Assembly: GCA_000091205.1 (NCBI GenBank)
Contig: AP006497.2
DNA from: Cyanidioschyzon merolae
Taxonomy: Eukaryota
DNA length: 64,000 bases
Reading direction: 5' to 3' (one strand)
A program made the position numbers and the translations under genes. Below are positions 1-61,800 of this stretch, piece after piece. Within the stretch, counting starts at the first letter, position 1, and the number at the start of each line of letters is the position of its first letter. The notes beneath the pieces were generated by a model, which worked only from the letters and a program-made list of their open reading frames with translations, had not been told where the DNA came from and ran no database searches.

Positions 1-1732
1 TCGACCGTTTCGATGTGCATCACGTCGCGATACATCTCCCTCACCAAATGCATCAGTCCTGACGACGCCTTGACAATACTCTTGGAGTACGAGTCGACAC
101 GTTTTTCGATAGCGTCTTGCAGCCTTTCCCTGTACGGATCCTTGATATGTCCAAGAAGAAAGGTTTTCACCACCATCTCGTTCTACGGTTGTCTTTCTTG
201 TCGCCTTCAACGTAGGGCCTCCCACTTTCGGTCCTTCTTCTCTCCCTTTTCTTCTGGACTCGGCACTGTTTTTCGTTTTTTTCTGGCAGCCGGCGACCCT
301 GGGCCTCCAGGATCGTGGACTTGCTTTTTCATAGCTTTCCTTTTTTAGTTTTTTTTTGAAAAACAACGCTCTGTGAACGCTTCTGTTATATACTGCGAAA
401 AAAACTTGAATACACTTGTTTGAGGTTTGAAAGAAAAATGAACTAAAAAACTGTACTCTGCTAAGACCTTAACGGAAATCCAATTTTTCCAGTACAACAA
501 CACGCTACTGATCAGGATCGCGTTTCCCTTCAACAGCGGCATTCGCATCGTGTCAGTAGACTGGCCGATCTCCGAGGTATCTGGGCGTCGATCTGGTCGT
601 GGTGAGCAAAACCCCGGGTACAAAAACACCGATAACAAAACAAACTAGTCGCAAACTATTTATTAAAGAACAACTATCTTAAAGACTCACATATCACGCC
701 CGCCTTAGAGGTCTAGTTTTTCCGGAGAAGCTCTGAAAGTGGGTTAACGCGGGGTGCTTGGGCGACAGCGAAGGAAGCCCACACCAGGGACCTTAACCGC
801 AACGAACGGAGGGGCGGCGGCAGTAGCACCAGAAAATGTTGACGAAAATCCTGATCAGTCATCCGCCCCTCCCGAATCAACGCTGCAGGTTCCGGCGCAA
901 ATCTTGGATCGATCCTTAAACTCGGGCTCCGGTTTACCTCCTACATTGGGTACCTACCTCAACTTTGGAAACAGTCTCGGCGGATACTTTGGAAGACGGC
1001 TGGCAGCATGTTCACTGTCAAAAGTGGAATAAGCGGCTTGCCCGCCTATGTGTTTGGGGAGCGGATACGAAGCCGCTGAAAGGTTGGTTCATAGAGTATC
1101 CCCTGTGGTTGAGGGTAGCTTCACGCGTCCGGCAAGATAAAGGTCGCATTTGAATCGACCTTGACTAGCGTACATCTGATTCTACGCTAGCGCTGCGGCA
1201 GACACTCAGTGAACGACTGGAATGCAGGAGGCGCTGGAGGCATGTGCGATCACACACGCCATGGAGGGTGCGTCTAAATTGACGACGTATCTCTGGAATG
1301 CCGCAGCGCTATTCCTATTCCCTTACGCGCTACGAATCGGTAGGTATTGCATCATGGAATATTTGTGGGATAGCCTCGGAATTGAGCTACGAAATATCGA
1401 ATTACCAGTAGAGTAAAGAGGAACTTATACAAGTCGGGGACTCTACAATAGGGAAAGAGACCCAACCAGATACGGAAAAGGAGGCACAAAGTCCTCATGA
1501 TCCACGTACCAGAAGAGTAACTAGAGAAAGCAGCTCAGCAAAAAGCCCGAAGAAGAAGAAGACCAACAAGAAAAGACAGAAGAATAGAGAGAAGAACACC
1601 CAAGCGGGCCCATCACAAGGTATCCCCCGAAAGGGCACTCCAGCGGGAACTCAAGAAAGCTGTCAACAAACCGAGTCACCTACTCACAGCGCTGAAGATC
1701 CGAAAAGCCGTGCATGCAAGTCTTTAGACCAA

Positions 1733-3960
1733 TTGGCACGCGAGTTTGTAGATGAGAATCAGAAGATCGCCAGAGAACTGGGACTGCTGGCACCAGAACG
1801 CAACAGTTGCAAACCTCAGTACCTGAAACGACGTAAAAAAGCACAGATTGATGAATGCCACCGACTCAACAAGATCGTCAACCGCACCGCCATACGCGCC
1901 AACGCCGGAGACAAGGAAGCGAAGGCAGCGCTACCGGCGCTACAGGCGCAACATGAGGAAGCTATCAAAAGAAAGAAGAAACTTTCCAGAGAAAACAAAC
2001 GAGGGGATCGAAACCGCAGAATCGCCTCCCTGGCGAAATCTATGCTAGAGAGCACCAACGAAGATGAGACTTGGCGCTACATCCGATCGAGACTGGACCC
2101 ACCAAAAAAGTGCTTGGGGCTCACACCAATCGTTTATAAGGAAGCGCTGAGGACGGAGAGTTCCTCAGTGAATGAGGCCTGGACGGACCACGGGATAGAG
2201 CTGCATGAAGAAGCAACTGGGAACTGCCAAGACCGAATCTATTGGCACCAATATGCTGCAGAACTACCGCGCCTCGACCTGGTACCAGAATGGAACGACC
2301 CAATCTTCTGGCCTGAATCTGTTCGGACCCTCTTAAGGTCATGCAACCGCAAAACACCTGGCTTTAACGGTATCCCTGCGGAGTGGATGAGACTGGCGAC
2401 CCCAAAAGACGGGACAACAGGGACACCATCGATACCAGATGAACCTGACACAATCTTAGGCAAACGCCCTCTGGAGCTCATCCAACGCATGTTTGAAGAG
2501 GCATACATCCCTGATGTATGTAGGAGTGTTGAGGTCGCACCGATCCTCAAAAAGGACTCCCACATACACAGACATGAACAACTACCGGACTATTCGCCTC
2601 ATCCCGTCAATCATGAAGCTACTTTGCGCCATCCTCACAAACCGGATCCAGAGGGGCCTCTAGGAGCGCAAGTTCTTCGCCCCAAAACAGGCTGGACTCC
2701 GGAGCCGCGAGGAGTGCATGAGCCATGTCCTGACCCTCATTGAAGTGGCGCAACGTCGCTTCATTAGCGACCAACAACCAACTTACGTATGCTTCATCGA
2801 CTTCCAAGAGGCATTTGACACGGTCCCGCATGAGGCTCTATTTCTGAAGATGGAACGAGCCGGAGTCTCCGCAAACTGCTTGGCGTTTTTCCGTGCGCTC
2901 TATGCAGACTCGTGGATGCGCATCCGACTGGGCGACGGCTCAAGAACCCCTTGTATAAGAATACGCCGTGGACTGCGACAGGGCGACCCCGCATCCCCGC
3001 TCCTTTTCAACATCTTCATCAACGATCTGCTGAACAATTGCAGACAATACGGGCTTGAGGTGCCGTGGATAGACTGTGGAGATGCTCGGTGAGGAGCCCT
3101 CACGTAGGAACCGCCTCGCAGGCCTTCTATTTGCGGACGATGTCGTGCTGTTGGCACCCGCCCCGGAAACGCTTGCGGCTAGCATGGAACAAGTCAGCGC
3201 CTGGGCCGATCGCTGGGAGATGAGCATAGGAGCATCGAAGTGCGGCGTTATGGCCATCCATGGAGACTCGCAGAGCATTCGCAATCGCTCGTGGCGGTTG
3301 CAGAATCAGGAAATTCCGATCGTGGAAAAATATCGCTACCTGGGGGTCTGTCTCACGCCGACGCTTGACGAAAAGGCACACGTCGACGAGATGATCGCCA
3401 AGATGCATAGACGTACAGCGATCGCACGCCCAGTCCTATCCGACCCTTCTATCCCCTTAGCAATCCATACGAGGGCACTAAGGATGTGTATCATCCAGCC
3501 TACGACCTGGGGTGCTGAATGGTGCAGCATGAAGCACCCAAATGCCTCGCGTCTGCAGACAGCCGCCAACAGGGCAATGCGACTCGTTGTTGTTGTTGGA
3601 TGCTCAGTGCAGAGCAGAGCGACCAACCTGCTGGCACTCGGACTTGAACTCGAAATACCCTCGATAGAAGCGATAGCAGCAGGCTGCTGGGCATGTATAC
3701 GGACCAAAGGGCCCGCCATGCGCACCTCTTTGAGTCGGATTTTCATGCAGACCCCAACGCACCGCAAGAAAACTTGGATGAAATCAGCGCAGATTTGGCT
3801 GATGCGCCTCTTAGGCGAAAACACGCTCCAATCGTTCCCCAGGAATATAGAATTCTCCCGTCGCCTCAAGCGAACGGTCCAAACACCAATATGGGAACGT
3901 ATACACGGTACCAGTCGCGCCAGTAACGCCGGCTTGACCCTATCCGGAACTACAACCTAG
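1733..3960 (+). pseudogene. Reverse transcriptase of the LINE-like element, split over three reading frames (1733-2743, 2718-3092, 3076-3960), i.e. at least two frameshifts
   Basis: The three consecutive ORFs lie in frames 2, 0 and 1 and together reconstruct one RT domain (GIPAEW … FIDFQEAFD … QGDPASPLLF … FADDVVLL). This indicates an inactive copy. Confidence 0.75.
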
Positions 3961-4134
3961 AATACACATGCAAGCACTGATGGGAGGCGCTGGAATTCCC
4001 GGGACTTGCTCGAGGTGCCCAGTAGCTCGCCAAAATCCACGTTGGTGGCTCCTGGCTACCAGCACGTGCTCTAAGCCGTATAGGAACACTGGAATCGCAC
4101 TGGGAATCACACTGTCCCTGCTGTCGAGACGAGA

Positions 4135-4148
4135 CCCCCCCCCCCCCC
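4135..4148. repeat. C14 homopolymer inside the LINE 3' region
   Basis: A direct read of the sequence shows gagacccccccccccccc at 4131-4148. Confidence 0.9.
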
Positions 4149-5355
4149 GAGACGCTGACATATTTAGGCTTACAGTGCCCGCGCTGGAAGCAGGAGCGCA
4201 GCGAGCTCCTTGAAGGACAGCAGCAGCTGGGCATCAGCGTGATAGTCGAAGGCCGGACACTCACTCTGAGTGTAGCACTGGCAACTGATGGTCCGTTAAC
4301 GGAGCCTCAGCGCTCATCAATGGCGAACAAACTCACATGCTACGTTCTAGGCAGAAGGTCCAGCGAATCGGATGCGCACACGGGCCCAGTGCGCTTTCTG
4401 CGCCTACCCACTGTGGTGGGTATCGAGCACAAACCCACGTTGCCAACCGACAACAATGCATTCCATGCATGATCACGAAGGAGAGAGGCGGCTCCCAGGA
4501 TATATCCTAACAACCAAGTTTCTCCAGCGTGTCGTGCAGCGAATACAAGCCTGCATCCGCAGACTGTCCGAGCACAAACTGACGACGAGACCCGATTCTA
4601 CGTCGGGTGAACCACACCTCGAGCCGACGCCCTTTGTGGTACGCCAACGCCGTTCTGTCTCCGTGCAGCGACAGCACCGGCGCTGTAGGCGCTATTGCTG
4701 TCGCTTTCGGCAGGTACTAGGCACACACGATAGGACGTATGAAATGACCAGTATATTCGAGAAGAAGTAGAGGTAATGTAAAATGGAGGTAGGGGGTTGA
4801 TGGATACCTCACCTCGCACTGAAAACCCCAAAAAGAAAAGAAAAATGCGCATAATCGGAGAACGCTGGCCTATGGAAACGTCTTGGCAATGAAAAAAATT
4901 CAGGGCGTCCCTTTCCCACGGTGTCCGCTATGGCGATTCGATGCGCCGCGATCGCCGCCGACGTCGCCCGAGGCGGGTGCCGCGTGCGCGGCGCCGCCTT
5001 CTTTCGCCGATGTCGCGACCTACTCCGCCGACACTTGTTTCTAAGGCGACCACCGCGACAGTGTCGACGGCTTGAAGCTTCGGTTTGTGTCTTGCCAGTG
5101 ACGTTTGGACTATAGTCGCGACACTCGTCTCTCCGTGTGACTCGTTCTAGGAAGATTACTCAAAGCACTAAGCACAGATCTTCAAGCGTCTCTAACAAAC
5201 GAGTGCGTTGGACTTTGGGTTGGACGGCAAGCTCGTGAGGCCCTCCGAGTGAAGTGGAACCCTGTCGAAACGAAAGCGCTGTGGGCTGTTTCTGAAAAAG
5301 CGGTCGCACTGGCGCTTCTCTGAACCGCTGCGTTTCCGTGGCGTGTATCGAGTTT

Positions 5356-5511: not shown

Positions 5512-6843
5512 ATGGGGTCCGTTTATGAGCCAGTAGGGTTTGAAGGCCCAGAGAAAAAGCTCGAAATCGACTTTCAACCAGCAGGTGAGGTAGCCGGTTC
5601 GCCCTGCTCGCCAAAGCATAGCCTTCGGTCGGTTCCGCGTAGCAAATGGGAAACAATTCTGGCGGTTGCGCAGTGTAATATCCTCTCGGTATTGCAGAAC
5701 GCACACTGCGACGCCTATTTGCTTTCAGAGTCATCCATGTTCGTCTTCGATCGAAAAGTCATGATCAAGACCTGCGGGACGACTTCGCTCCTCCGCACAG
5801 TTCCCGAGCTGATGGCGGTCGGCCAGCAGCTGCAATTGGAGATAGGATTTCTGCAGTATTCACGCACTGCCTTCCGTTACCCAGAATACCAGCCCGCGCC
5901 GCATCAGAGTTTCCGCGACGAGATCGCATACCTCCGCCAGTACCTACCTGAAGGCTTCGAGCGCGTCATGGCGGATGACCACGCCATTCCGCCTGCCCAA
6001 CGCATGGCGTGGCATGTCTTCACCTACGATAATCAGCGAATGCCCACGAATGAGCAGAGCCTCGAGGTGTGCATGTTTGATCTAGATCCGATGGCAATGC
6101 GGTGCTTTTTCGGCGATGATTCGTTACACGGAGGCGATCCAGTGCTGTGCACGCATGTGTCCGGCATCGATGATCTCTTGCGCGCCGCAAAGCGCCTCGA
6201 TCAGAATGCAGTGGATGACGACGGCGCCGCGCCGCTCGTCGACGCGCACCTCTTCTCGCCGTGCGGGTATTCCATGAACGCCCTGGACGGATCAACCTAC
6301 TACACGATTCATATAACGCCTGAGAACCACTGCAGTTATGTGTCCTTTGAGACAAACGCCCACTTGGGCTCTTTCGTGCCAGTTTTACGCTGCGTTCTTG
6401 AAACATTTCGGCCAGCGCGGTTTCAGGTTGCATACGTAGGCGATGAGCAGGCAGCAGGGACACACGCGGCGCGCGACTGGCCCAAGCACCTTCACGCTGG
6501 GGAGCAGCGTTTCTCGCGTCGCGACGCTCTACAGACCGGGGGATGCGCAAAACCCAAGTGCTCCCCGATGGTATGGAGAAGGACTGGGCCGTACAATCAC
6601 TGGATGGCGAGCAGTGCAACCTATCAGTGCGTGTTGGGCTGGCCGTCCCTAGCTTGCGATGAGATCGCCGGCGAGAGGGCGCACTGCGGCTACAATGGGT
6701 GGAGTTCACCTGTCTCCGGTGACTCGTGGAGTACCCGGCCGACGCCGTCGCTCTGTTCCGACTCCGAGCGCGACCTCGATGACGTTCCACTGGACTCCTC
6801 AACGACATTGGATGGACAGGCTCCGAACATATCCATCGGGTAG
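5512..6843 (+). CDS. SAMDC: S-adenosylmethionine decarboxylase proenzyme (eukaryotic class II AdoMetDC), 443 aa with a ~60-aa C-terminal extension
   Basis: FEGPEKKLEI (the classic FEGPEKLLEV box). YLLSESSMFV (the proenzyme autoprocessing site, Glu-Ser, which generates the pyruvoyl group). KTCGTT, FSPCGYSMN and YYTIHITPE…SYVSFETN all match human AMD1 in position and order. Confidence 0.9.
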   Translation: MGSVYEPVGFEGPEKKLEIDFQPAGEVAGSPCSPKHSLRSVPRSKWETILAVAQCNILSVLQNAHCDAYLLSESSMFVFDRKVMIKTCGTTSLLRTVPELMAVGQQLQLEIGFLQYSRTAFRYPEYQPAPHQSFRDEIAYLRQYLPEGFERVMADDHAIPPAQRMAWHVFTYDNQRMPTNEQSLEVCMFDLDPMAMRCFFGDDSLHGGDPVLCTHVSGIDDLLRAAKRLDQNAVDDDGAAPLVDAHLFSPCGYSMNALDGSTYYTIHITPENHCSYVSFETNAHLGSFVPVLRCVLETFRPARFQVAYVGDEQAAGTHAARDWPKHLHAGEQRFSRRDALQTGGCAKPKCSPMVWRRTGPYNHWMASSATYQCVLGWPSLACDEIAGERAHCGYNGWSSPVSGDSWSTRPTPSLCSDSERDLDDVPLDSSTTLDGQAPNISIG

Positions 6844-7999: not shown

Positions 8000-9645
8000 A
8001 CAGCTTGAGCTCTACTACAAGTTATGCTCCGTCCAGAGGGCAACACAGCGGCTAACGCAAAGCAGCCTGGACTCTTGAATGAAGCATCTGGGGCACTTCT
8101 TGAATGAGCGATCGCTCTGCGCCAGACGCCGATGCCCAGCTCGGGTGCACTGGGGTCCATCGCTACCGCTACTTGTCCGTACGCTGAAGCGTAAAGAAAC
8201 GCCCGAGAATCCACCCTGGAAATCACTGGAGAGAAAAGAACGTATGGAGACCGGACGATGCCTCCTGTGAGTCACGGAGACAGGGATGTAGCAGTTGGAT
8301 CACCGTTTGCGGTGAGACGCTGGCATCAGGCTCGGGAAACGTTTGTATGTGCGGTCGTATCCGTGGGAGTGCTGGTGTGCTGTGGCGGTGGTGCTTGCGA
8401 ATCAGACGACACATGACCGCGAGGCATTCAACCAGCTGCGCATGCTAGTGCTGACGCAGGAGCACGTACTATGTCCGAAATGTGTGCTCTAGCTTTCACT
8501 GAAGCTGTGGCGTTGTCGGTGCTAGGCACGGTATCCGTTCTAATGCTGGAGGTTTTGCGCATTCCAGGAATCCCCAGGAACGCTTCGGTTGCCTCGATGG
8601 ACTACATTGCTGCAAATTCTTCTGCTTGGGCAAGTGTTTCCGTTTAGAAGTATTTCGACGAGAAGCGCTGACCACTGCATGAAGCCGAAATCTTAGAGGG
8701 AGCCAGCAGTCCGCGCAGATGCTTTTTACTGGACACAAAGTGTCATCAAGTGCTGCTGTAGGTTTTTCCCCATTTACTGAAGAGGCGTGTCGGTGCCGAA
8801 CTCGGCCCGCTGATCAGTCGTGCAAGCTCCCAGCTTGCTCTCGGAACGCATAAATGCGCTTCGTGCAGACAAGGAATGGAAGCGTTGTAGTGGTTCGTAG
8901 GTTCTTTCTTCTTTCGAGCTGTTCGATAGCGTTCACATAGAACGCTCTCATGCGCTCGCTTATTCGCTGCCATTGTCAGCTGCGGACCTGAACGGTTCCA
9001 CAGGCACTTTTTTTGAGGCGATCGGCTAGCGCACGCACGCCATGTTTTCCAGTCCGCTGCACCGATAAACCAGCGCGGCGTGGGTACTCTCGTCGACGAC
9101 GCGACCGCAGCACTGCTGTTACGGGTTTACGCGGGATAGATTCCAGCCGGAAACCTTCGATAGGCAGTACTGGAAGCGGTTGGAAAACGATCGCCCACGC
9201 TTCACTCGGGAAACCTTACTATAGTCTGTGCTATAGAGAGGAATATGCTCTGCGACCTCGAGCACCGTACGCGGCGTCCGGATCAATATCGCTGAAGCTG
9301 CTCTAGCACGGAACCCGCATTCAAGTTCATGTTTTAAACTGAAACATGCTCTGCGCTCATGAACAGTGTGGAGGCCATTCGAGCTATCTCCGTGCTCCTT
9401 TTCACGCCCTCGCGTGTCATCGAGTTCTTTCCCAAGACGCGTTTTGCGAAAGAAATTCTCCCTGTAAATTCATAAGGCAGAGCAGAGAGCCGGCGCTCAG
9501 CACGCCATGACTTTAGCAGCGCTCGCGTTGCAAGTTGCCAACGCCGTACAATGCCAGGGAGCCTCGGCTTGGTCTGCCACACTCAGGTCAAAATAACGTG
9601 GGACGAACCTGCGTAACTGACTCGGACGTACGTACGAAACCTGGT

Positions 9646-10767
9646 TCTCTTCCCAGTATCATCAGCAACAGCCTTTGCGAGATTCTTCGGCGACTGCTCC
9701 CTTTTCCGGTCTCTTGTCTCTGGCGTGCCATAGCCGATCTCTCCTGTGATCGATGTACTATGTCAGCAGTCAACGGATGCCGATGGCAGCATCGAAGCCT
9801 CGATTTCGCTGCTTCTGGCTGTCGCCGACGCGCTTCATGAACAGACCGTAGATGCGATCTACGCCCCGCTTGGCATGTTCGCCTTCTTCATCATATACCG
9901 CCTCTGTACGCCGTATACAGCGGTGACGCTTCGCTACCGTCGGTTATTCGCGTATGTCGACTGCGCGTCTTCCGCGGGCCGTCCTACAACGCGTGAACGC
10001 TTGCCTCATCGCCCGGCACATGCCCCGCCATGGCACAGAACGCTTCTCTGGGTGCGGTCCTCGGTTTCAGCACGCGGTGCCGTGCACTACGATTACGTGC
10101 TCCACCCGGGCGATCCTCTCGCCATTGTCTCTGTCCTCTGCACGAGCAAGCGCGCGCTCTTCCAATGGATAGATGATTTATGGAACGCGATGTCGTCCAC
10201 GATGAAACTTGTGTCGGAAGGAAAACCAGGGCTGGATCAGCATTCGAGAGATTCGGATGCGTCAACGCTGCCTCTGTACGAATCGATGACGCACTCTGCA
10301 CTAGCCGCACTCGCGGCGATACAAGAAGGCCGGTTCGAAACCTCTTCTACGTGCAACCGGAAGCGTCGTGTGCCTCAGGGAGTACAAGCCATGAGGTATG
10401 CCATGCTCCTGGGGAATGCGGTTCCGTTAGTGGCCTCAGAGAGAGGATAATTTGGCTTTCCGTGAGATTGTTTATTTGATGTGAGTGTCTCAGTGAACTC
10501 TTGGCGTGGACTTGCGAAGAGGTCGATGAGGGTCTTCGATGGGTTTTTCCTATTCAATCCAGATGCGCAGAATGCTGAGCCCACGACTTGCCTACAAAAA
10601 CTGGTTGATCGAAAACTTGGTGAATGCTTATGTTGAGCATGCTGCGCGCAATAAATGGAGAAGCGCGGAGTCTCGTACTTACGCATTGGATAACGATATC
10701 GGTTCTTTTACGGAACCCTGCTGGAGGGCGTCGTGCTTCATCATGATTTCGATAAAGGATCGAATTC
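9646..10767 (-). repeat. Interspersed repeat family X, subfamily A, copy 1 (~1.12 kb, non-coding; minus orientation relative to subfamily B)
   Basis: It is about 99% identical to 20963-22085, and the overlapping ORFs differ by only 2 of 234 aa. It is related at roughly 65-75% nucleotide identity to B, with shared blocks ccgatatcgttatcca and ccgtaaaagaacc versus cctaaaaatacc, and homologous 3' termini (gaaaagggagcag versus gaaaggagcag). Confidence 0.75.
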
Positions 10768-11102
10768 CAGCAGTAAAGCATCCGAGGCGCTACAGCAAAA
10801 TGACGACCGAAAAAGCCACATCTGGCGTATGCATCCGTACGCTCTTGTTGCTGCAGGTCGAACGGTGAGGCTGGTCATCCCATAAAATTCTGACAAAATC
10901 GACATGCAGTTCAGTATGCCACGTTAGCGTTGACATGGATGTCGCGCCTCTGAATTGTGTGCGCAAATTTGCGCACCGCAGTTAACCAGAGTCGCCTGTA
11001 CTCCATGATTGCTCAGGATATTTCCGGCGTGATACACGGAACAGCAAGCCTTGATCATTGCAGCACGCATCGTACCCAATCAGAAGCCGCAGACGAAAAT
11101 CG

Positions 11103-13325
11103 TTAGTCTGAACTCGCGGCCTCGATCGCTGACGAGGCATTGTCGCTGGCATGCGGCGGCTCTGCTGTTGAACGCTGCGACGCTGCAACGTCTGGCGTGC
11201 CTCTGTCTGATATGGGTGTGGCGGTCTGCGACCTCCAGGCCGGGGCCGCCGCAGCTGCTGCAGCTGCTGCAGCCTCGCGCGCAGCTTCCTCCGCCAGGTC
11301 CTCCGGGATGCGGTACCGATCCATGGAAGCGAACAACGTAGATGGCGCTCCCGTCGGTAGCGGCATTTTCAGGGCTGATATCAGCGGATTGCCCGTAGGT
11401 CTTGGTCTATAGAGTGGCTTTTCACCGGGCGATGTATGCACCGATCCGATAATTTGAAGACCGTGGAAGAGGTCGACGCCCAGCTCTGCCTTACAACGGC
11501 GATAGAAATCTTTCGGCGCCAGTTTTCCGCGACCGGTGCCGCGTGCAATCATGCGCTGCGACTTGACCCAGAGCCGCACCGAGCGAAAGCGATCTCGACG
11601 ACAAATAACGCTCGGATACGGATGCAATGGAGTCCATTCATCCGTTTCGTAACGCCATTGGCGGAGCTCGGCAAAACGCTCCTCCAGAGAATGTGTTCGC
11701 TTGTTTCTCTCAGCCTGAGGCGTATCTGCTGGCGCCGTCGATACGCCCTCATCCGAAAGATGATCGCCCTCAGATTGTTCAGTGGATTGTCTGGGGTGAG
11801 CGCGCGGCTGCGTGAAGCTATCGCTGCCAGTCTGGGAAGCCTCTGGTGACTGCTGCTCCAGTTCGTTTTGTTGCGAGCCCGCGTGCGTTGGTGTTGCGCG
11901 CCCCTCACTATCAACCTGAGACGTGACCTGCTGTTCCTTGTCCCGTTGGCGCTCCTCGCGTTTTCGTTGCCGCTCTGCTTCACGTTCTGCTCTACGTTTC
12001 GCAAGCAGCTCCGATTCCCGTTTTCGATAGACCGACTCCAGATCCTTGGCTGTTACACTAGCGTCGTTCACAAAGACAGGATGTTGTTTCAGCTCGGCTG
12101 CGAAAACTTTGAGCATTTTGGAGACGCTGCGGGGTTTCTTGTAGCGAAAATTAGCAGCATTCAACGCTTGAACCTGGTGGACAAAGTACTGGTGCACGCA
12201 ATCAAGAAGCGCTGGCCTCTCGAGCAGGTTCGATTCCGTTGCTCCGTCCGCAGCAGGCAGCTGCTCCGCTACAATGTGGAGCTGATCTCGTATCTGGCGT
12301 AGCTGCTCTTCGGCGTCGCGCTCTACCTGACGCCAGTATCGAGCAGATGCAACCTGCAAAAGCTTCGGCTTGGTTGTTCGCAGGAATGCTAAACGATTGA
12401 AGAGTTCCTCTTGAAAGCGGTACGGGACGGAGCCCTCACTGGTGGGCACCGAAGCAAGTCGAGCAGCAACAGCGCTTTCGCAAAATTCTGCCAGCAATTC
12501 CACGAGTTCTGGTACTTTCTCCCATCCATTCGGCTTCTTGTCTCCGTAGAGGTCACGAATGCGTGCCTCTAGACGCCGTGCCACCTCTTCCACTCGCTGT
12601 GGGAGCACAACTCGTGAATGGCGCCGCGACCAGGCCCATTCCTCAAAGTCATCGTCCTGGGATGGCCCCGAGCGTCCCGTCATCCCCGAAGCGAGCTGAT
12701 GACGCTCCGGCGTCGATGCCGCACTAGCAGGCCGCGGATCCGCCGAAGGAATCCGATTCCAGCGCTGCCCCAGGATGCTGGATAATACGCCAAAACCAGG
12801 CTGCATATCAGCTGCAAAATCCTCGGTTATTTCAGAGTCATCAATAAAGTCGGAGTCATAGTCATAAACGGAGTCGTCGGACTCGTAGTTGCCACGAACT
12901 GCAGCGTTCAGCCGTCGGCGTCGCCGTTTGCGACCTTGACGTTGTCGTCCGGTTGGAACTGTCGCCCTCACAGGTGCAATAGTCTGTGGAATTGAGGCAG
13001 GTGACCCCGGAGGCTGCTCGCGAACGTTTGTTTCCAGATCTCCCTGCTTCGTGGGAAGCCGCAAGCTCCCCGTCGCTTCCAAAGCGGAGACTGGCTTGTT
13101 TGCTTCCGTTTGAGAGGGCTGGGCAGCCTCAGTCCTGAATGCGACACCATCGGACGCTTCTAAAGTTCCTGAAGCGACGACGGAAGCGGTAGCAGTGGAC
13201 GGCGCAAGCACGCGAGTCGCGCCGGCCGTTTCCTCGCGTACGGGAGCCGGAGCAACAGCGCTCTGCCGACGCATGAGCTCCCGAAAGTTCAGTTCATTGG
13301 TCCGCTCAGGATCCAGCCTCAACAT
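11103..13325 (-). CDS. Hypothetical 740-aa protein with no recognisable domain: acidic and Ala-rich low-complexity N-terminal half, poly-Ala run, and an Arg/Glu-rich coiled-coil segment (RRAEREAERQRKREERQRDKEQQ)
   Basis: An uninterrupted ORF of 2.2 kb in a genome where random ORFs above 200 codons are rare. I did not recognise any catalytic motif. Confidence 0.55.
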   Translation of the reverse strand: MLRLDPERTNELNFRELMRRQSAVAPAPVREETAGATRVLAPSTATASVVASGTLEASDGVAFRTEAAQPSQTEANKPVSALEATGSLRLPTKQGDLETNVREQPPGSPASIPQTIAPVRATVPTGRQRQGRKRRRRRLNAAVRGNYESDDSVYDYDSDFIDDSEITEDFAADMQPGFGVLSSILGQRWNRIPSADPRPASAASTPERHQLASGMTGRSGPSQDDDFEEWAWSRRHSRVVLPQRVEEVARRLEARIRDLYGDKKPNGWEKVPELVELLAEFCESAVAARLASVPTSEGSVPYRFQEELFNRLAFLRTTKPKLLQVASARYWRQVERDAEEQLRQIRDQLHIVAEQLPAADGATESNLLERPALLDCVHQYFVHQVQALNAANFRYKKPRSVSKMLKVFAAELKQHPVFVNDASVTAKDLESVYRKRESELLAKRRAEREAERQRKREERQRDKEQQVTSQVDSEGRATPTHAGSQQNELEQQSPEASQTGSDSFTQPRAHPRQSTEQSEGDHLSDEGVSTAPADTPQAERNKRTHSLEERFAELRQWRYETDEWTPLHPYPSVICRRDRFRSVRLWVKSQRMIARGTGRGKLAPKDFYRRCKAELGVDLFHGLQIIGSVHTSPGEKPLYRPRPTGNPLISALKMPLPTGAPSTLFASMDRYRIPEDLAEEAAREAAAAAAAAAAPAWRSQTATPISDRGTPDVAASQRSTAEPPHASDNASSAIEAASSD

Positions 13326-32243: not shown

Positions 32244-33268
32244 CGCAAACACAAGCGAACTTGGATGCAAACGCAGGCACACAGCGCTCAACAAGAAACA
32301 ATGCGAAACAGCGCGTCCTGAATGCGACAGATGCGCACGCAGCGTCGTCGCTGCGGCGCGCCGCGATGTCACGCGCCTAGCCCGATGTGACGTTCGCGGT
32401 GCGATGCGCCAAGCACCAGCGCACGCCGACGGGCGGCGGCGTAACCGCGGGATGCTTCACCTGCAGTATCCCTGGATGTGCGAATTCGGCGTGGAACTCG
32501 GGGAAAGGAACCTCAAGTACCGCAGAGCACTGAAGACGCTGCGTCAAAATTCTGACGAGTAACGCATTGAGGACGAATCGGTCGCGTGATTTCCACAGTG
32601 CCGAGCGCATTCGTGTCGTTCAATGGGGTGAACTTGGGGCATTCTTCCACATGGGTCCAGATGTTTATAGGGTGCAAGTAGTTAGCAAATAGGCCGTTGT
32701 TCATGTACAGGCACTTTCGCAAAACGCCAGATTCAGAGGACGCTTGCGTATGGCCTTAGTAGCGAGACCCTGCGATGATGCTGGTGGCGAGTCGGGCGCT
32801 GGTGCTTACTGCAGCACCAGATGCACAGCCCAGAAGTGTGTCGCGAGAAGGAACGGTCACGCGGTAACTGCCTCTGCTTTTTGGTTTCACACCTGCACTG
32901 TCCACGTTTCTTTCTCTCTGTCCAACACTTGATGATCGCCATCATGGTTCAGAGCCCGTCGCATGGAAACTTCAGCGGGATGCAATTCCATGACAACGGA
33001 TGCGCTGGATTCGTGCTGAAGCCCACGCACGCTCAGCGATGTTGTTCTGTCTGGGAGGAAACGAGACGACGCTGGAACATCCACCATCGAAAAACTTGCC
33101 TACAGTCTGCTCCGCGTCAACAGAGTCGCTGGATGGACTGATCTGTGGCTCGTGCGCAGCGTCCTCACATCCGCTAAAAACAAGTGATGATCGCTCGTCT
33201 GGTTTTGGGCGGCAACTGCACCTTTAGTGGACTACTGTGCGACGTATCCATCAAACTGCATGAAGCGA

Positions 33269-33562
33269 GAAGCCGACGCCCTCTGTGTGTGCTACGGCAA
33301 CGCCGTACTGTCTCCGTGCAGCGACCGCACCGGCGCTATAGACGACATTGCGGTCGCTTTTGGCAGGCACTAGGCACACACGATAGGACGTATGAAACGA
33401 CCAGAATATCCGAGAAGAAGTATAGGTCATGTAACTTGGAGGTAGCGGGTTTGATGGATACTTCACCGCGCACTGAAAAAACACAAAGAAACAGAAAGAA
33501 AAGAAAAAAGCGCATAATCGGAGAACGCTGGTCTATGGAAACGTTTTGTCAATGAAGAAAAG
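33269..33562 (+). mobile_element. 5'-truncated copy (292 bp) of the LINE 3' end, flanked by a perfect 18-bp target-site duplication tcaaactgcatgaagcga (33251-33268 and 33563-33580)
   Basis: The element aligns to 4622-4888 and ends …caatgaagaaaag. An identical 18-mer lies immediately on both sides, which is the hallmark of target-primed reverse transcription. Confidence 0.8.
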
Positions 33563-33752
33563 TCAAACTGCATGAAGCGAAAAGGCGCCGCCGCCGCCGC
33601 TGCCGCCTGCTGCGCAACGAAACATCGCGCGACGTCCAAGTCCGATACAAGCTCTGCTGCTACACATCACGCCTGTAAACGTACTCGCCGCGAGTCGCGT
33701 CGTTCTTCTGTACTTTGTGAGAGCGCTTGGGAGCATGCCTGGTTGAGCACGA

Positions 33753-38542: not shown

Positions 38543-38930
38543 GCACGCGCATGATGCGTGCGTGCTTGGCACCGAACGCAGTAGCCACGACGACTCCTAC
38601 AGAGCGCCTCCTCTGGGTCGTTGAGGGCGTCAGATTCCATGCCACACTTGAGACTGGCAGTGCCCATACACGCACTGGAGCTGAGCGTTGTCATAAATCG
38701 GGACCTGGGGCTGCGAAACAATCGCTCTCAATGGTATTGCTGGCGTGCAACGAATGGACAGCGGGCACCACAACGCAAGTGCCCGCGGAATGCGGTGCGC
38801 TGGATGATTTCCTTGCATCTGTATGCAAGGATGCGCGCTCTGCTTCTTGTGCTGGTGCTGCTGCTTTGGGGAATTTGTGCACGTGCGTCATCCACGCTGA
38901 TGGTTGCTTTTCGAATGGTGACTACTGAGG
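38543..38930 (+). repeat. Repeat E, copy 1 (388 bp); it is the inverted partner of 44305-44692
   Basis: The overlapping ORF translations are about 97% identical in inverted orientation (…TRMMRACLAPNAVATTTPTERLLWVVEGVRFHATLETGSAHTRTG…). Confidence 0.8.
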
Positions 38931-44304: not shown

Positions 44305-44692
44305 CCTCAGTAGTCACCATTCGAAAAGCAACCATCAGCGTGGATGACGCAAGTGCACATATTCCCCGAAGCAGCAGCACCAGCACAAGCAGCAGAGCGC
44401 GCATCCTTGCATACAGATGCAAGAGAATCATCCAGCGCACCGCATTCCGCGGGCACTTGCGTTGTGGTGCCCGCTGTCCATTCGTTGCACGCCAGCAATA
44501 CCATTGAGAGCGATTGTTTCGCAGCCCCAGGTCCCGATTTATGACAACGCTCAGCTCCAGTGCGTGTATGGGCACTGCCAGTCTCAAGTGTGGCATGGAA
44601 TCTGACGCCCTCAACGACCCAGAGGAGGCGCTCTGTAGGAGTCGTCGTCGCCACTGCGTTCGGTGCCAAGCACGCACGCATCATGCGCGTGC
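44305..44692 (-). repeat. Repeat E, copy 2 (inverted relative to 38543-38930)
   Basis: The reverse complement aligns end-to-end with E1. Its 5' end, in the E1 sense, lies 7 bp from the start of the LINE 3'-end copy at 44700. Confidence 0.8.
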
Positions 44693-44699
44693 GCGTACC

Positions 44700-45250
44700 T
44701 TCTAGGCACAAGGTCCAGCGAATCGGATGCGCACACGGGTCCAGTGCGCTCTCTGCGCCTACCCACTGTGGTGGGTGTCAAGCACAAACCCGCATTGCCA
44801 ACCGACAACGCATTCCATGCATGATCACGAAGGAGAGAGGCCGCTCCCAGGATTCATCCTAACAGCCAAGTTTCTCCAGCGTGTCGTGCAGCGAAGGCAA
44901 GCCTGCATCCGCAGACTGTCTGAGCACAAACTGACGACGAGACCCGATTCTACGTCGTGTAAACCACGCTTCGAGCCGACGCCCTCTGTGGTATAGAAAA
45001 GCTATTCTAGCTCTATGAACTATCTGCTCCAGCGGTTCAGGCGCAAAGGCGGATGATTAGGGTAGGTACTAGACACACCCGATAGGGCATATGAGACGAC
45101 CAGAATATCCGAGAAGAAGTATAGGTAATGTAACTTGGGAGTAGGAGGTTGATGGATACTTCACCTCGCACTGAAAAACCCAAAAAGAAAAGAAAAATGC
45201 GCATAATCGGAGAACGCTGGCCTATGGAAACGTTTCGTCAATGAAAAAAA
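44700..45250 (+). mobile_element. 5'-truncated copy (~550 bp) of the LINE 3' end, ending …caatgaaaaaaaa
   Basis: It aligns to 4345-4888 at about 90% identity, with a 3-nt indel and scattered substitutions. No clear target-site duplication is visible. Confidence 0.7.
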
Positions 45251-45429
45251 ATGTGCATGCGCGCCGTCGCCGCGTCGCTGCGTGCGTGCCCCGTCATCGA
45301 TGCCGTGCACGCGGTAGCGCTGAACGCTCTAGCGAGCGAGGCAGCAGCGTCTTCATTCCTTCTTTGTGACAGAGGCACCGCGCTACCTTCATACGTCTTG
45401 ATCTGGTTACCTCACAACGTGCATAGCGT

Positions 45430-57672: not shown

Positions 57673-58715
57673 CCACGCTGCAGCTGGTAAAAAGAGGTAC
57701 CTCCAAAGACGCTGATACTCTCCGCTAATCGAGCTACAAGACATGCTCTGCAAAGAAGAGCTAGGAAGGGCTCTTGCAGTATGCTGCAGCTGGTAAAACG
57801 AGGTACCTCCAAAGACGCTGATACTCTCCACTAATCGAGCTACCTAGACATGCTCTGCAAAGAAGAGCTAGGAAGGGCTCTTGCAGTATGCTGCAGCTGG
57901 TAAAACGAGGAACCTCCAAAGACGCTGATACTCTCCGCCAATCGAGCTACCAAGACATGCTCTGCAAAGAAGAGCTAGGAAGGGCTCTTGCAGTATGCTG
58001 CAGCTGGTAAAACGAGATACCTCCAAAGACGCTGATACTCTCCACTAATCGAGCTACCTAGACATGCTCTGCAAAGAAGAGCTAGGAAGGGCTCTTGCAG
58101 TATGCTGCAGCTGGTAAAACGAGGAACCTCCAAAGACGCTGATACTCTCCGCCAATCGAGCTACCAAGACATGCTCTGCAAAGAAGAGCTAGGAAGGGCT
58201 CTTGCAGTATGCTGCAGATGGTAAAACGAGATACCTCCAAAGACGCTGATACTCTCCACTAATCGAGCTACCTAGACATGCTCTGCAAAGAAGAGCTAGG
58301 AAGGGCTCTTGCAGTATGCTGCAGATGGTAAAACGAGATACCTCCAAAGACGCTGATACTCTCCACTAATCGAGCTACCTAGACATGCTCTGCAAAGAAG
58401 AGCTAGGAAGGGCTCTTGCAGTATGCTGCAGATGGTAAAACGAGATACCTCCAAAGACGCTGATACTCTCCACTAATCGAGCTACCTAGACATGCTCTGC
58501 AAAGAAGAGCTAGGAAGGGCTCTTGCAGTATGCTGCAGATGGTAAAACGAGATACCTCCAAAGACGCTGATACTCTCCACTAATCGAGCTACCTAGACAT
58601 GCTCTGCAAAGAAGAGCTAGGAAGGGCTCTTGCAGTATGCTGCAGCTGGTAAAACGAGGTACCTCCAAAGACGCTGATACTCTCCGCTAATCGAGCTACC
58701 TAGACATGCTCTGTA
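57673..58715. repeat. Tandem satellite, 107-bp unit x ~9.7, with at least three unit subtypes arranged non-randomly (higher-order structure)
   Basis: The period is 107 bp (atgctgcagctgg at 57781, 57888, 57995 …). Variant positions co-vary: gaggtacc, gaggaacc or gagatacc; ccactaat or ccgccaat; acctag or accaag; cagctgg or cagatgg. It fills most of the 1.4-kb spacer between DRS1 and the next gene. Confidence 0.9.
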
Positions 58716-58806: not shown

Positions 58807-61800
58807 ATGCACCTGCCAGCGCATCCCGTGAACAACTTTTATCGGATTCTAGCGCCTGGAGTGCGAACCGACACGTCCTGCTCCAGCCGAACACTTTCGA
58901 GGAGAGGTTTTGCGTTGATGGACGCTGATTTTCCCGAATGGGAAGCTCCAGCGGTCAGCCTCTTCGATTGTTTGCTCCAGGGGTGTCACGAGAACCCGAA
59001 CGGTCGTTGTGTACGCTGCGAGAACAGCGTCGGGTGTCCTGTCGCCTCCGTTTCTTCGGACGGCTGGCTGGCCTACGCACAAGTCAGAGCGTACGTGGAT
59101 CGCCTTATCGCATACCTGCAGAGCGAGCCATTGAAACTGACTCCAGGGAAACGCGTTGCCGTTTATAGCGTGTTTCGGTGGGAGGTCTCGATCGTTCTTA
59201 GCGCGGCGAGCTTTCTGCAACTGCCCGTCGTGCTCATCGACGCACACGAAGACGTCTCCTTTGCTCGTGCGCTACTCAATAACCAATGTGTTTCACTTCT
59301 GTTTCTTGGTCAGGAACAGAACTGCGAGGAACTCCAGAGCTATGCAGGTAGGTGTCTGCTTTTGGGAGCGGCGGCTCTAGACCTGCCGTCGCAGCCGCCG
59401 ACACTATTCTCGGTACTGCAGGTCGACACTGCCCCGGAGGTCGTGACATCTGGGCAACCTCGTCGAAAAGACTCCGTCGCGCTGATCATGCCAACCGCGG
59501 GCATGACAGGTCCACGACGAGTCATCTGCGTAACCGAAGAACAGCTAGCCCAAGCCGCACATGCGCTAGCCCCGTTGCTTCAGTATACATCGTCGGATGT
59601 AGTCTGTTTTCTGACATACTCCATATTTCATCCATTTTTTATTGTACATATCCTGCTGTTATTCCGAGCTGGCGGTGCCTTTGGAGCCGAACTCCAGACA
59701 CTCGACAATATACGAAAAATGCGTACAACCGTGCTTGTTGGCCCAGGTGCTATACTATCCACATTCTATGAGCTTCTCCGCAAAGAGGGTGAAAAGCTTC
59801 GCGGACTTGCGCGTCGCATCTTTGCGCTGCTCGTGGAGCAACCTCCATTGAATCAATGGGACCCAAAAGCGGCGCTGAAGAGCACGCGAACAGGCATCGC
59901 GCGCTCGGTGATGCGCAGCATCCGCGACCTCTTCGTGCCCCAGTATCGCCTGACGGTCAGCGGCATCTCGCGACTCGCCGAGGACACACGACTCTGTCTG
60001 GAGCGGCTCCTTCTGGAACCTGTACTCGATGTATACGGGCCATCGGAGTGGGCTGGCGTGTGTCTTGCTCGAACGCGCAAACGAGAGCATGACGAATGGT
60101 TCTGTATCCTGAGCAGTCCCTTCAACCGTCTGGGCCGTCTCTCGACACTCATGCGTCAGGGCGAACATACGGCGTACGGCGAGCTGCACCTCCATATCAA
60201 CGGAAAATGGACAGCGACGGGGGATCTCTTTCGTTTCATCATGAACCGGGGTCCAAGTGACCCTGAAGCACCGCAATGGCGAGCGCTCGCATTTGTGGAT
60301 AGGATCTCGAAGATCGTGCTTTGTGCAGAGCACGGTGCGAACGAGTTGGATACCTCTTTGGTGGAGCCAATTGAGCTTTCTCCACATGAGAAACAACCGC
60401 CGTTTCTCTCACTGAGTCTCATGGAACGGGCATCACAGCGCAGTGCCTTTGTTCGACAGTGCTGGATCTCGTTTGAGGCACCACAGCGTCTCATGGTTCT
60501 TCTGGTTCCCGTCCGCGACATGGTATGGAAATGGCTACGAATGCGACAATCCGCGAATGGCACTGCACTCGTGCCGTCCAGAGACGCGCTTTCGGTCGAG
60601 CCGATGCGAGATGTCTGCAACGACGCCCTGTTCCAGGAGGCTGTTGTGTGCGACCTGCGGCGCGTGCTCGTCAACTGTCGTGCCATCAGAGACGAATGGT
60701 TTGATGCGCTCTCCTGGGAAATCTATTTTGAGCCACAACTCGATGCGGGCTGCTTCGATTTGGGCTTCACTCCGCGCAACCGCCTCTTAACACCGTCGTT
60801 CGAATTGAGAACGAAATCACTTCGTGCCTATTATGGGAAAGAGCTTGGTATTCCGGTGCCGAGGGCCTCGCTGGAGCGCGGTGCGTTACTCGCAGAGCAG
60901 CTTGATGAGGAGGGCAGGCTCTCGGAATCCTCGAATAGCGACGAATTCGAATCAGACATAGGCGACGAGCCGGAGACTGCAACCGCTTCGAGTCTACAGC
61001 GATGGCTTTTGACGCTCTGGTCGGCTTTGCGCGCTGACCTCGTCGATCCTGTTTTGAATGCTGATGAAGAATGCATCGAGCATCGCTCGTTTTGGGGACG
61101 CATATTTCACCGTCAGCTAGTCACGTCCGATTCCGCCGAAAGGGCAACTACGCGAAGCACGCGAGAGACCTCAGCTGGTGAAGCTGCATCCACCAGCATA
61201 CCTCGCACAGACCCCGATCCAGATGGTGCTTCAAAAGGCCCAGCACCCGCTCAGGAGATAGGCTGGATCGCACGTTTCTGGCGATCAGCGGGCGATCCTG
61301 GTCTCAGCGAGCGTCCCCCGGTGCATTTGCCACGCTTCGCGAGCCTCGATGCTGACCTGCCCGATGGTGCTTGTTTGCCGCTGTTGCATTCGACGCGAAA
61401 TACTGGTCGACGACAAAGACAAAAGGCGCACGATGGACGGCTACGTAGCCGTGATGGTGGTGCAGCTTCAGGGCACTCGCGATGGCGCCTCGGTCGATTG
61501 TGGAACACGTTGGTCCATGAATCGCCAGATCACGACTGTGTGGATGCTGGTGCTGCTACACAAGTTGATCGTGGAGCGGGCGACGGGGCGGATATGGTGG
61601 GAGGCCTCACGGCATCGGGCGCCTCAGAAGCTGCAGCGCAGATGCCTCGATGGCGGCGCTGGTTGCACGTCCCGAGAGTCACAGCGTCAGGCGTGTGCGG
61701 TGCTCCCCAAATGAACGAGCACATGAGAACGATTCGGAAAGGGCGTAAGCGGAACCGCTATGATCACCACTCTGCCGAGTCGCTTTCCATATCTGATTCT

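Follow-up and report, generated by a model that had tools for sequence, protein, structure and literature searches.

The 64,000-nucleotide stretch of Cyanidioschyzon merolae DNA analysed here (contig AP006497.2, hereafter the window) contains a dead and essentially full-length retrotransposon resembling a long interspersed nuclear element (LINE), together with two shorter copies of its 3' end, near 33.3 and 44.7 kb, which we interpret as independent retro-insertions. We assign this reading a probability of about 0.85. An initial annotation of the same DNA had already proposed a LINE-like element of the type lacking long terminal repeats (non-LTR), accompanied by 5'-truncated retro-insertions, and this proposal was supported by the reverse transcriptase (RT) that the element encodes, by the differing flanks of its copies, by target-site duplications (TSDs) and by at least 53 further distinct insertion loci.

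Extent and coding capacity of the full-length element

The element was placed at approximately 590-4898, its leader probably starting at position 590. Homology to independent copies thus moved the start about 1.1 kb to the left of the span 1733-4888 given in the initial annotation, to ~590/643-4898. The core begins at 643 in the metagenome loci L001, L105, L123 and L124 (labels of this form denote loci), the DNA upstream of it in L105 and L123 is unrelated, and contig L001 aligns to window positions 1-4880. The assignment of the whole of 1-1733 to the 5' sequence of the LINE was rejected in part, as 1-578 is a separate repeat with a terminus of its own (repeat X, see below). The parts of the element are the following.

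590-4898, plus strand: degenerate full-length non-LTR retrotransposon, ~4.3 kb (blastn and alignments to L001, L105, L123, L124 and L125)
590-642, plus strand: variable leader of the LINE, starting with GATC and common to the window, L105 and L123
643, plus strand: start of the LINE core (AAACTAGTCGCAAACTATTTATTAAAG) and of homology to all 5'-complete copies; homology to independent copies with unrelated upstream flanks begins at 634-643
579-589, plus strand: candidate upstream TSD of the full-length copy (ATCTGGGCGTC), a weak match to 4898-4909
4898-4909, plus strand: candidate downstream TSD of the full-length copy (ATTCAGGGCGTC), a weak match to 579-589
1169-4507, plus strand: remains of a single large open reading frame (ORF), ~1,110 aa in the consensus (majority consensus; tblastn)
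2370-3350, plus strand: reverse-transcriptase domain (Pfam RVT_1; PDB matches)
4113-4178, plus strand: C-terminal CCHC-type zinc knuckle (CPCCRDE..ETLTYLGLQC, from the translation)
4508-4898, plus strand: 3' untranslated region (UTR), ~390 nt, ending GTCAATGAAAAAAA (consensus stop at about 4507)

The 3' end of this copy reads GTCAATGAAAAAAA / GAAAAAAA, with an A-run at 4892-4898, and all three window copies end in GTCAATGA(7-8). A ~930-bp 3' region ending in an A-run had been described before; the A-run is there, but most of that region is coding and the 3' UTR occupies only ~390 nt of it. A repeat search of 400-5200 revealed no terminal direct or inverted repeats (LTR or terminal inverted repeat, TIR). 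Positions 579-589 and 4898-4909 agree in nine of ten bases over TC(T/A)GGGCGTC and share an AT besides; this is the sole such match at the ends of the element, and it is weak.

A majority consensus of 12 non-redundant long copies opened to two overlapping frames of 524 aa (window 1169-2740) and 678 aa (2460-4507), with one frameshift left near 2570, across which the annotated C. merolae 10D protein P0004 reads. When this consensus was compared with the window by tblastn, the frames followed each other in the order 2, 3, 1, 3, 2. The view that the RT ORF is dead and split over three frames was therefore right about its death and fell short of its decay, which amounts to at least four frameshifts (near 2570, 3085, 3943 and 4400) and five in-frame stops. 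The implied ancestral ORF would have started with an N-terminal region and a helical linker, followed by the RT, a thumb-like region, the CCHC knuckle and ~100 further residues.

The RVT_1 domain was recognized by Pfam in the window ORFs 2718-3092 (E 4e-14) and 3076-3960 (E 7e-6), as well as in the ORF of L001 (2.9e-22). The RT motifs PGFNGIP, NYRTIRLIP, FIDFQEAFDTVPH, GLRQGDPASPLLFNIF and LLFADDVVLL are readable, and the patterns NYR..., F.DF..AFD.V.H, G.RQGDP.SPLLF and FADD are visible in the translation. In the window copy the His of the zinc knuckle is replaced by Tyr; its relatives show CPFC..ET..H....C and weak zf-RVT Pfam matches. The best PDB matches of the window RT were the R2 RT (4e-19) and human L1 ORF2p (7e-13), E-values that do not discriminate between lineages; the zf-RVT-like CCHC and two relatives, P0015 and P0233, that bear an apurinic/apyrimidinic endonuclease (APE) are hints of an APE lineage rather than one of the R2 type with a restriction-like endonuclease (RLE).

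Two shorter copies of the 3' end

33271-33562, plus strand: short copy of the 3' module, ~290 bp, '285 class' (self-BLAST)
33251-33272, plus strand: upstream TSD of the 33.3-kb copy (TCAAACTGCATGAAGCGAGAAG; flank comparison)
33563-33584, plus strand: downstream TSD of the 33.3-kb copy (TCAAACTGCATGAAGCGAAAAG; flank comparison)
44696-45251, plus strand: 555-bp copy of the LINE 3' end, '555 class' (self-BLAST)

Self-BLAST aligned 4341-4898 with 44696-45250 (86.7% over 558 bp) and 4622-4902 with 33271-33565 (84.7% over 295 bp); as both E-values were at most 1e-90, these similarities are not due to chance. The initial annotation had reported that the terminal ~545 bp and the terminal 292 bp of the element recur, the latter with an 18-bp TSD, and both observations were reproduced, at 44696-45250 and 33271-33562. 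The TSD of the 33.3-kb copy, TCAAACTGCATGAAGCGA at 33251-33268/33563-33580, is exact over 18 bp and extends to 22 bp with one mismatch, and its target, CC/ATCAAAC, is a one-off variant of the motif CATCG discussed below. The 44.7-kb copy starts at TACCTTCTAGGCA, which is position 4341 of the LINE and falls within the C-terminal part of its coding sequence. A young local duplication of 388 bp, inverted and 98% identical, relates 38543-38930 to 44305-44692, and 3 bp separate one edge of this younger duplication from the 5' end of the 44.7-kb copy.

Insertion census, 5' ends and target motif

Metagenome contigs were scanned with a 22-nt stretch of the tail that does not vary among the three window copies (at the Y of this pattern, L001 has C). 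The scan yielded at least 120 loci from about seven hot-spring metagenomes, so that many of them are orthologues, and clustering of their flanks reduced them to at least 53 distinct insertion loci. Among those listed, 29 distinct loci showed TSDs, with a median length of 14 bp.

In window LINE coordinates, the 5' ends of complete loci span 3628 to ~4830 and beyond. One locus each starts at 3628 and 4253, three start at 4340/4341, and about fifteen among those listed start within 4603-4622, at least nine of these independent loci, each with its own TSD, beginning exactly at CCTCGAGCCG (4614). The remaining ends are ragged (4639, 4643, 4664 in two loci, 4674, 4680 in two loci, 4698, 4710, 4722, 4727, 4728, 4738, 4754, 4767, 4778, 4789, 4821, 4830 and beyond). 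Ragged truncation and discrete 5' ends are thus both present, and the choice between a pile-up and ragged ends posed by the initial annotation turned out to have both answers. That annotation had also drawn attention to the identical start of the copies at 4345 and 44700, an argument that is circular within the window, one of the two being the parent; the start itself is nevertheless shared by two more independent insertions (clusters 8 and 10, with TSDs ATCGATCGGTGCAT and ATCGGAAAGAGAAT), which also begin at TACCTTCTAGGCA. An apparent pile-up at 4833 was discarded as an alignment artefact: it reflects an A-rich insertion absent from the window copy, and the true 5' ends differ.

In 15 of the 29 loci the TSD started at CATCG, the C of which lies immediately outside the duplicated bases; the expectation for random 12-nt windows is 1.4% (binomial p ~1e-20). 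Most of the other TSD starts were one-off variants (CATCC, CATCA, CAACG and CATGC), and long copies sit on the same motif, as ATCG or ATGC. The geometry of target-primed reverse transcription (TPRT) is standard for LINEs, and with CATCG at the start of the TSD it implies a first-strand nick at the bottom-strand sequence 5'-CGAT^G.

A structured 3' module

4614-4898, plus strand: structured 285-nt 3' module (alignment A3 of 27 independent copies; RNAalifold)

The 285 class corresponds exactly to this module, which is the unit of about 15 independent short insertions. Its fold was obtained with RNAalifold on 27 independent tails, one helix being added by eye from the same alignment. It consists of two 5' hairpins, one of them the inverted repeat 4667-4683 / 4689-4705 (I3), and of a long-range helix in which CCAGAAUAUCCGA pairs with the near-invariant UCGGAGAACGCUGG, enclosing a further hairpin. 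The 27-tail alignment contains two sequence variants of the tail, whose differences are compensatory. In this fold 93.7% of the cells were paired, compared with 33-40% when the partners were slid by 1-3 columns; double-sided changes affected 40 cells, as opposed to 15±3 in shuffles (none of 500 attaining the observed figure), they were distributed over 8 base pairs, and the covariation score was 0.206 vs 0.128. By analogy with LINEs whose RT depends on a conserved tail, we infer that the module may act as the RT recognition element.

Two long copies are interrupted close to the module. L125 (2968-6793) lacks the 285-nt module, its homology stopping at window position 4624, and L105 (12038-14166) has lost an internal segment, 2437 being joined to ~4609 across an ACCA microhomology, so that both breakpoints adjoin the module boundary. 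L105 was also considered as a 285-class insertion into a LINE-internal CATCGAT, a possibility that was rejected as the 3' flank is without a target repeat; it is an internally deleted copy instead, and a TSD was not established for it.

The tail has also given rise to tandem arrays (L022 655-1187, L046 1-356, L069 1921-2205 and L088 2813-3376), which are built from its last ~100-136 bp and constitute a small satellite; those of L022, L046 and L069 repeat every ~150 bp, with a 14-bp spacer (TCCGAGACCTTCTT) in every unit. A second, divergent LINE family is present in the same metagenomes (L126 9956-12141); over the RT, its representative P0010 shares 62% identity with the consensus. This second family may also include the tails of L062, L018, L037, L125 and others, which match window 4591-4822 at 67-76% identity; their homology, like the 285-nt module, begins near the boundary at 4600.

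Origin of the discrete short classes

Both the 285-nt and the 555-nt units are short, co-linear with the LINE 3' end and have their tail in common with it. The initial annotation had advanced, as an alternative, that the 545-bp unit is an independent short interspersed nuclear element (SINE) with a borrowed tail, and had pointed to 4345-4450 as a place for RNA polymerase III (pol III) promoter boxes. The discrete 5' ends on which that idea relied are real, and the stronger class is the one of 285 nt, not the 545-bp unit, but the expected head is missing. The 285-nt consensus has no A or B box within 2 mismatches, and in 4341-4620 of the window there is no B box and the sole A-box-like site needs 2 mismatches. 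ARAGORN detected no tRNA-like sequence in the window, Rfam at gathering thresholds matched nothing there, and upstream of the copies no shared non-LINE head was found, their flanks failing to cluster. Prokaryotic readings of the window were rejected on the negative ARAGORN and Rfam results. Because A and B boxes, a tRNA-like fold, an Rfam match and a shared head are all lacking, the discrete classes are not classical SINEs. On the present alignments we read them as recurrent short templates derived from the LINE RNA, whether through initiation inside the element, through processing or through a strong stop of the RT, and less as one independent SINE lineage. In support of this idea, two different tail subfamilies (stem variants) are represented among the three 555-class copies, so that this 5' end arose at least twice, from different LINE subfamilies.

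The explanation that best survives beside recurrent short templates is that every short copy arose by simple 5' truncation. The accumulation of 5' ends at 4614 and at 4341 would then mark hot spots of RT stopping or strand transfer, for instance where the structured module begins, rather than defined RNAs. In about half of the complete loci the 5' end is indeed ragged and unique, 4614 is located immediately upstream of the first conserved hairpin, and the junction of 2437 to ~4609 in L105 and the end of homology at 4624 in L125 fall near the same boundary; yet ends that are exact to the nucleotide in at least nine loci are sharper than usual RT pausing, and a structural block 5' of 4614 or at 4341 was not identified, which leaves this explanation possible but doubtful.

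It is unlikely that the 285-bp unit, the 555-bp unit or both represent a true independent SINE family that has masters of its own and borrows the LINE tail. Such a family would account for the sharp, recurrent 5' end, found exactly at CCTCGAGCCG in at least nine loci and within 4603-4622 in ~15, and for the relationships of the 285-class copies, most of which are mutually closest (0.07-0.12, vs at least 0.10 to long copies) and are mostly grouped in a neighbour-joining tree. It would not account for indel markers that split the 285-class copies and are found in long copies as well (CTC followed by a four-position gap vs CACTAGGC, and an AAACCCC variant), nor for the two stem variants among the 555-class copies, and the promoter, tRNA-like, Rfam and shared-head searches described above argue against it too.

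Age of the insertions

The three window copies differ mutually by 13-15%, paralogues by 13-18% and independent tails by 7-25%. All three window insertions are found in environmental strains with 99.1-99.7% identity and flanks that are mostly 98-99.9% identical: the orthologues of the 33.3-kb copy (L048 and L099) are 99.7% identical, with flanks of 98-99.9%, and those of the 44.7-kb copy (L020, L063 and L113) are 99.1-99.5% identical. Such near-identity of orthologous insertions implies that they predate the divergence of the strains, and every long copy examined was degenerate. Judged from these comparisons, the window insertions are old and fixed, and the LINE family is apparently old and extinct in the C. 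merolae genome; the description of the family as recently active did not withstand the 13-15% divergence of its copies and the 99.1-99.7% identity of their orthologues in environmental strains.

The missing endonuclease

Neither an APE nor an RLE was found in the six 5'-complete copies or in ~1 Mb of family-bearing contigs. Pfam (E<=10) detected no Exo_endo_phos in P0043, the longest N-terminal protein. A hidden Markov model built from four APE domains of distant relatives and run with all filters off had no match in six-frame translations of the window and 126 loci, and tblastn with APE sequences against the same set returned nothing below E=0.06. None of the 30 proteins returned by the N-terminal 395 aa of the consensus carries an APE Pfam domain; these N-terminal/linker proteins are all of Cyanidioschyzon type and none is longer than 501 aa. 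The PD-(D/E)xK pattern of restriction-like endonucleases was not found in the ~100 aa that follow the CCHC, and no APE-bearing family member was found, L126 being 5'-truncated and most other relatives being cut by contig ends. The relatives from Galdieria are short gene models in which RVT_1 is the sole domain. In Pylaiella P0015 (35% identity), GDFN...SDHYP is kept just upstream of a linker that aligns with that of the window copy, and Orpinomyces P0233 has both Exo_endo_phos and RVT_1. One segment of the window deserves mention in this context.

1340-1480, plus strand: possible N-terminal APE remnant (I/FASWNICGIAS...GKETQ), from its resemblance to APE N-termini (P0062, P0064) and from the position of the linker relative to Pylaiella P0015

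Lying ahead of a low-complexity stretch rich in Lys, this segment resembles the initial ~45 residues of an APE, the rest of which may have been deleted. Taken by their sequences, the sampled members in their present state are not autonomous LINEs. Most simply, an APE-bearing master would have been lost, leaving behind deletion derivatives and passengers, and a family-wide lack of endonuclease fits an extinct family.

Two other accounts of the missing enzyme were considered. In one, integration proceeded without an endonuclease of the family's own, through pre-existing nicks or a host or foreign nuclease, and CATCG reflects pairing between the target and the 3' end of an RNA that read through into the flank. 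This is quite unlikely. The failure to find APE or RLE in the copies, contigs and proteins listed above is in its favour, as is the tendency of the TSD that follows the insertion to start with ATCG, since a slight read-through would give an RNA ending in ...A7UCG; but TSDs of a regular ~14 bp, together with intact 3' ends, are what characterizes TPRT that depends on an endonuclease, and loss of an APE master is simpler given that the relatives P0015 and P0233 carry APE. Endonuclease-independent L1 insertions are usually without TSDs and 3'-truncated. In the other account, more improbable still, this would be a LINE lineage from which APE has vanished in all sampled Cyanidioschyzon populations, and whose copies, both long and short, were nevertheless inserted at CATCG with ~14-bp TSDs by means of a nicking activity that is neither APE nor RLE. 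Were this true, the candidates would be a host enzyme, an unrecognized domain within the N-terminal ~350 aa, or another mobile element, such as the abundant Fanzor/TnpB-like repeat whose 5' terminus repeatedly abuts LINE ends. The missing nuclease is the sole point here that might surprise a transposon specialist.

Proposed mechanism and its weighing

Our data suggest a sequence of events in which the element RNA would carry the conserved structured ~285-nt 3' module, predicted in silico and ending in GUCAAUGA7, which the family RT probably recognized in cis or in trans, as in 'stringent' LINEs. A bottom-strand nick at 5'-CGAT^G (top-strand C/ATCG), suggested by CATCG at the TSD starts, and a second nick ~14 bp downstream would produce the ~14-bp TSDs observed. 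Synthesis of cDNA by TPRT would often stop early, giving the ragged 5' ends, and the recurrent ends at 4614 (exactly the 3' module) and 4341 might correspond to defined short RNAs, formed by internal start or processing, that would have moved as non-autonomous SINE-like passengers without a pol III head. As all sampled long copies are without an endonuclease domain, the nicking activity would have come from elsewhere, possibly from an APE-bearing master that has been lost or was not sampled, or from a source still to be recognized.

Origin of the window copies by segmental duplication or gene conversion is next to impossible: several young local duplications do exist in the window (97-99%), one of them abutting the 5' end of the 44.7-kb copy, but the shared flanks that the initial annotation had named as the mark of such an event are absent, the three copies having unrelated flanks and one of them, at 33.3 kb, a TSD of 18-22 bp, all copies end at the same A-run, at least 50 further loci have the same anatomy, with their own TSDs in most of the complete ones, and the copies are 13-15% diverged, unlike the 97-99% identical local duplications.

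Several points weigh against our interpretation of a dead LINE with independent retro-insertions of its 3' end. A clean TSD was not found for the 44.7-kb copy, for which the edge of the 388-bp duplication may be responsible, and the candidate TSD of the full-length copy is only imperfect, at about 10/12. Metagenome contigs can be chimeric at repeats; we consider the junctions real because TSDs are present at both of them. The defined 5' ends could be RT stop sites, and the mutually nearest 285-class copies also fit a self-propagating short lineage. The covariation stems largely from two subfamilies, that is, from few independent events, and includes a helix placed by eye on the same alignment. 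Finally, the endonuclease searches described above yielded no enzyme for the nicking step of TPRT.

Neighbouring repeat X

1-578, minus strand: 5' end of a ~3-kb interspersed repeat, X, cut by the window edge; a family of its own, with a fixed terminus in many loci

The ORF of repeat X starts at about position 170 on the minus strand (MVVKTFLLGHIKDPYRERL...), and its fixed terminus, found in many loci, reads ...GGTGCGCTCACCGAGCGCGAT. Pfam gave no match for the X ORF. Fuller copies (L079 8800-11571 and L045 ~8500-11987) contain the RuvC-like motifs GADPGNTNI and RDFNAAINIR. CMe-1A, a ~3-kb C. merolae element of ~150 copies that encodes a Fanzor1 (TnpB-like) protein, is without TIRs and of unknown class (Bao and Jurka 2013, PMC3627910). 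Because size, copy number and the RuvC-like motifs fit, X is probably this Fanzor1/TnpB-like CMe-1A, which would then be identical with the ~3.2-kb repeat that the searchable text of Nozaki et al. (2007, PMC1955436) reports from C. merolae 10D in 253 copies, with a truncated ORF weakly similar to WSV486 of the white spot syndrome virus (WSSV).

The 5' terminus of X abuts LINE ends in at least four junction types across loci. Its reverse complement begins with ATCGCGC, and inverted LINE tails abut it in L019 and L079, which is partly explained by the terminus carrying the target motif. Junctions of X and LINE in direct orientation also recur (the window, L001=L124, L058 and L125), and the target motif explains the junctions only in part.

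Genomic context and published background

C. merolae is a model alga whose genome is among the most transposon-poor of free-living eukaryotes. Six long ORFs of the window, from CMO015C to CMO037C, match C. merolae 10D proteins exactly (902,900-bp chromosome). We take the locus-tag prefix 'CMO' to denote chromosome 15, and the low locus numbers place the window near one chromosome end. Its genes include those for an S-adenosylmethionine decarboxylase (5512-6843), CMO015C, an rrp5-like protein, PMS2 and CMO037C; G+C is ~55% throughout, and ORF tools are usable here because C. merolae is nearly intron-free.

The window also holds other low-copy direct duplications of 0.8-1.3 kb (14791-16071/23986-25264, 98%; 9646-10851/20963-22170, 97%; 46864-47638/54192-54966, 99%). 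These three are also present in orthologous metagenome contigs, and they are neither high-copy nor related to the LINE. At 57677-58713, directly upstream of the CMO037C ORF (58807-62085), some ten units of 107 bp, with identities of 96-98%, are arranged in tandem.

The searchable text of the report on the finished 10D genome gives 26 class I elements, BLASTX-closest to non-LTR retrotransposons, three of them with an intact RT ORF and all together making up about 0.7% of the genome by the published count (Nozaki et al. 2007, PMC1955436). On these elements that text offers the count and the BLASTX assignment and nothing beyond. These elements (Matsuzaki 2004; Nozaki 2007) are like the window element in belonging to the same genome and the same protein family, and the window element is almost certainly one of the 26. 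Among named homologues, those closest to the window RT are 10D proteins annotated as 'retroelement, alive', with relatives in Galdieria and Pylaiella. Two of these 'alive' proteins, P0004 and P0008, share 82-86% identity with the window RT, and their premature stop, after WIDCGDAR, corresponds to the stop at window position 3090; the 10D 'alive' proteins are in fact 348-aa fragments that end at the stop of the window copy.

The LINE family is therefore already known in kind, and this locus adds no new kind of element. In the literature texts open to our search, which covered sources other than Repbase, the ends, TSDs, target motif, 3' module, short classes and missing endonuclease of the family are undescribed, and a clade name specific to it was not found. 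As far as these texts could be checked, the preference for CATCG with 14-bp TSDs and the family-wide absence of an endonuclease go beyond the published description. The published count, if read as covering RT-related elements only, probably misses short tail-only retro-copies, environmental relatives having at least 53 distinct loci, and the 285-nt consensus together with the CATCG/TSD signature provides a simple means to mask and date such fragments.

Comparison with known systems

RIME/ingi, NARTc/L1Tc and EhSINE/EhLINE are protist pairs in which the short member, a headless non-autonomous retroposon derived from the LINE, is mobilised in trans with TSDs of ~12 bp, ingi and L1Tc having a conserved insertion-site pattern. 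The C. merolae short units are like these in being short and made solely of parts of the partner LINE. Unlike RIME and NARTc, which keep the LINE 5' end and the Pr77 promoter, the 285-nt unit is purely a 3' module, and as far as testable the RT clades of the protist pairs and of the C. merolae LINE are unrelated.

The eel pair UnaL2/UnaSINE1, reportedly described by Kajikawa and Okada in 2002, is said to be a 'stringent-type' LINE/SINE pair with a common 3' stem-loop tail. The C. merolae short units differ from such pairs in having no tRNA-derived pol III head, and tail recognition by the RT is here putative; they agree with them in a short tail without long poly(A), in a conserved 3' structure common to the LINE and its passengers, and in the conservation of the terminal sequence.

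Compared with APE-type LINEs (L1, at TTTT/A, and the site-specific Tx1 and R1), the C. merolae family has a motif of its own, CATCG (bottom strand CGAT^G), and an APE domain was not found in the sampled copies. With these elements it nevertheless has in common a nick motif at the start of the TSD, TSDs of regular length and 5' truncation.

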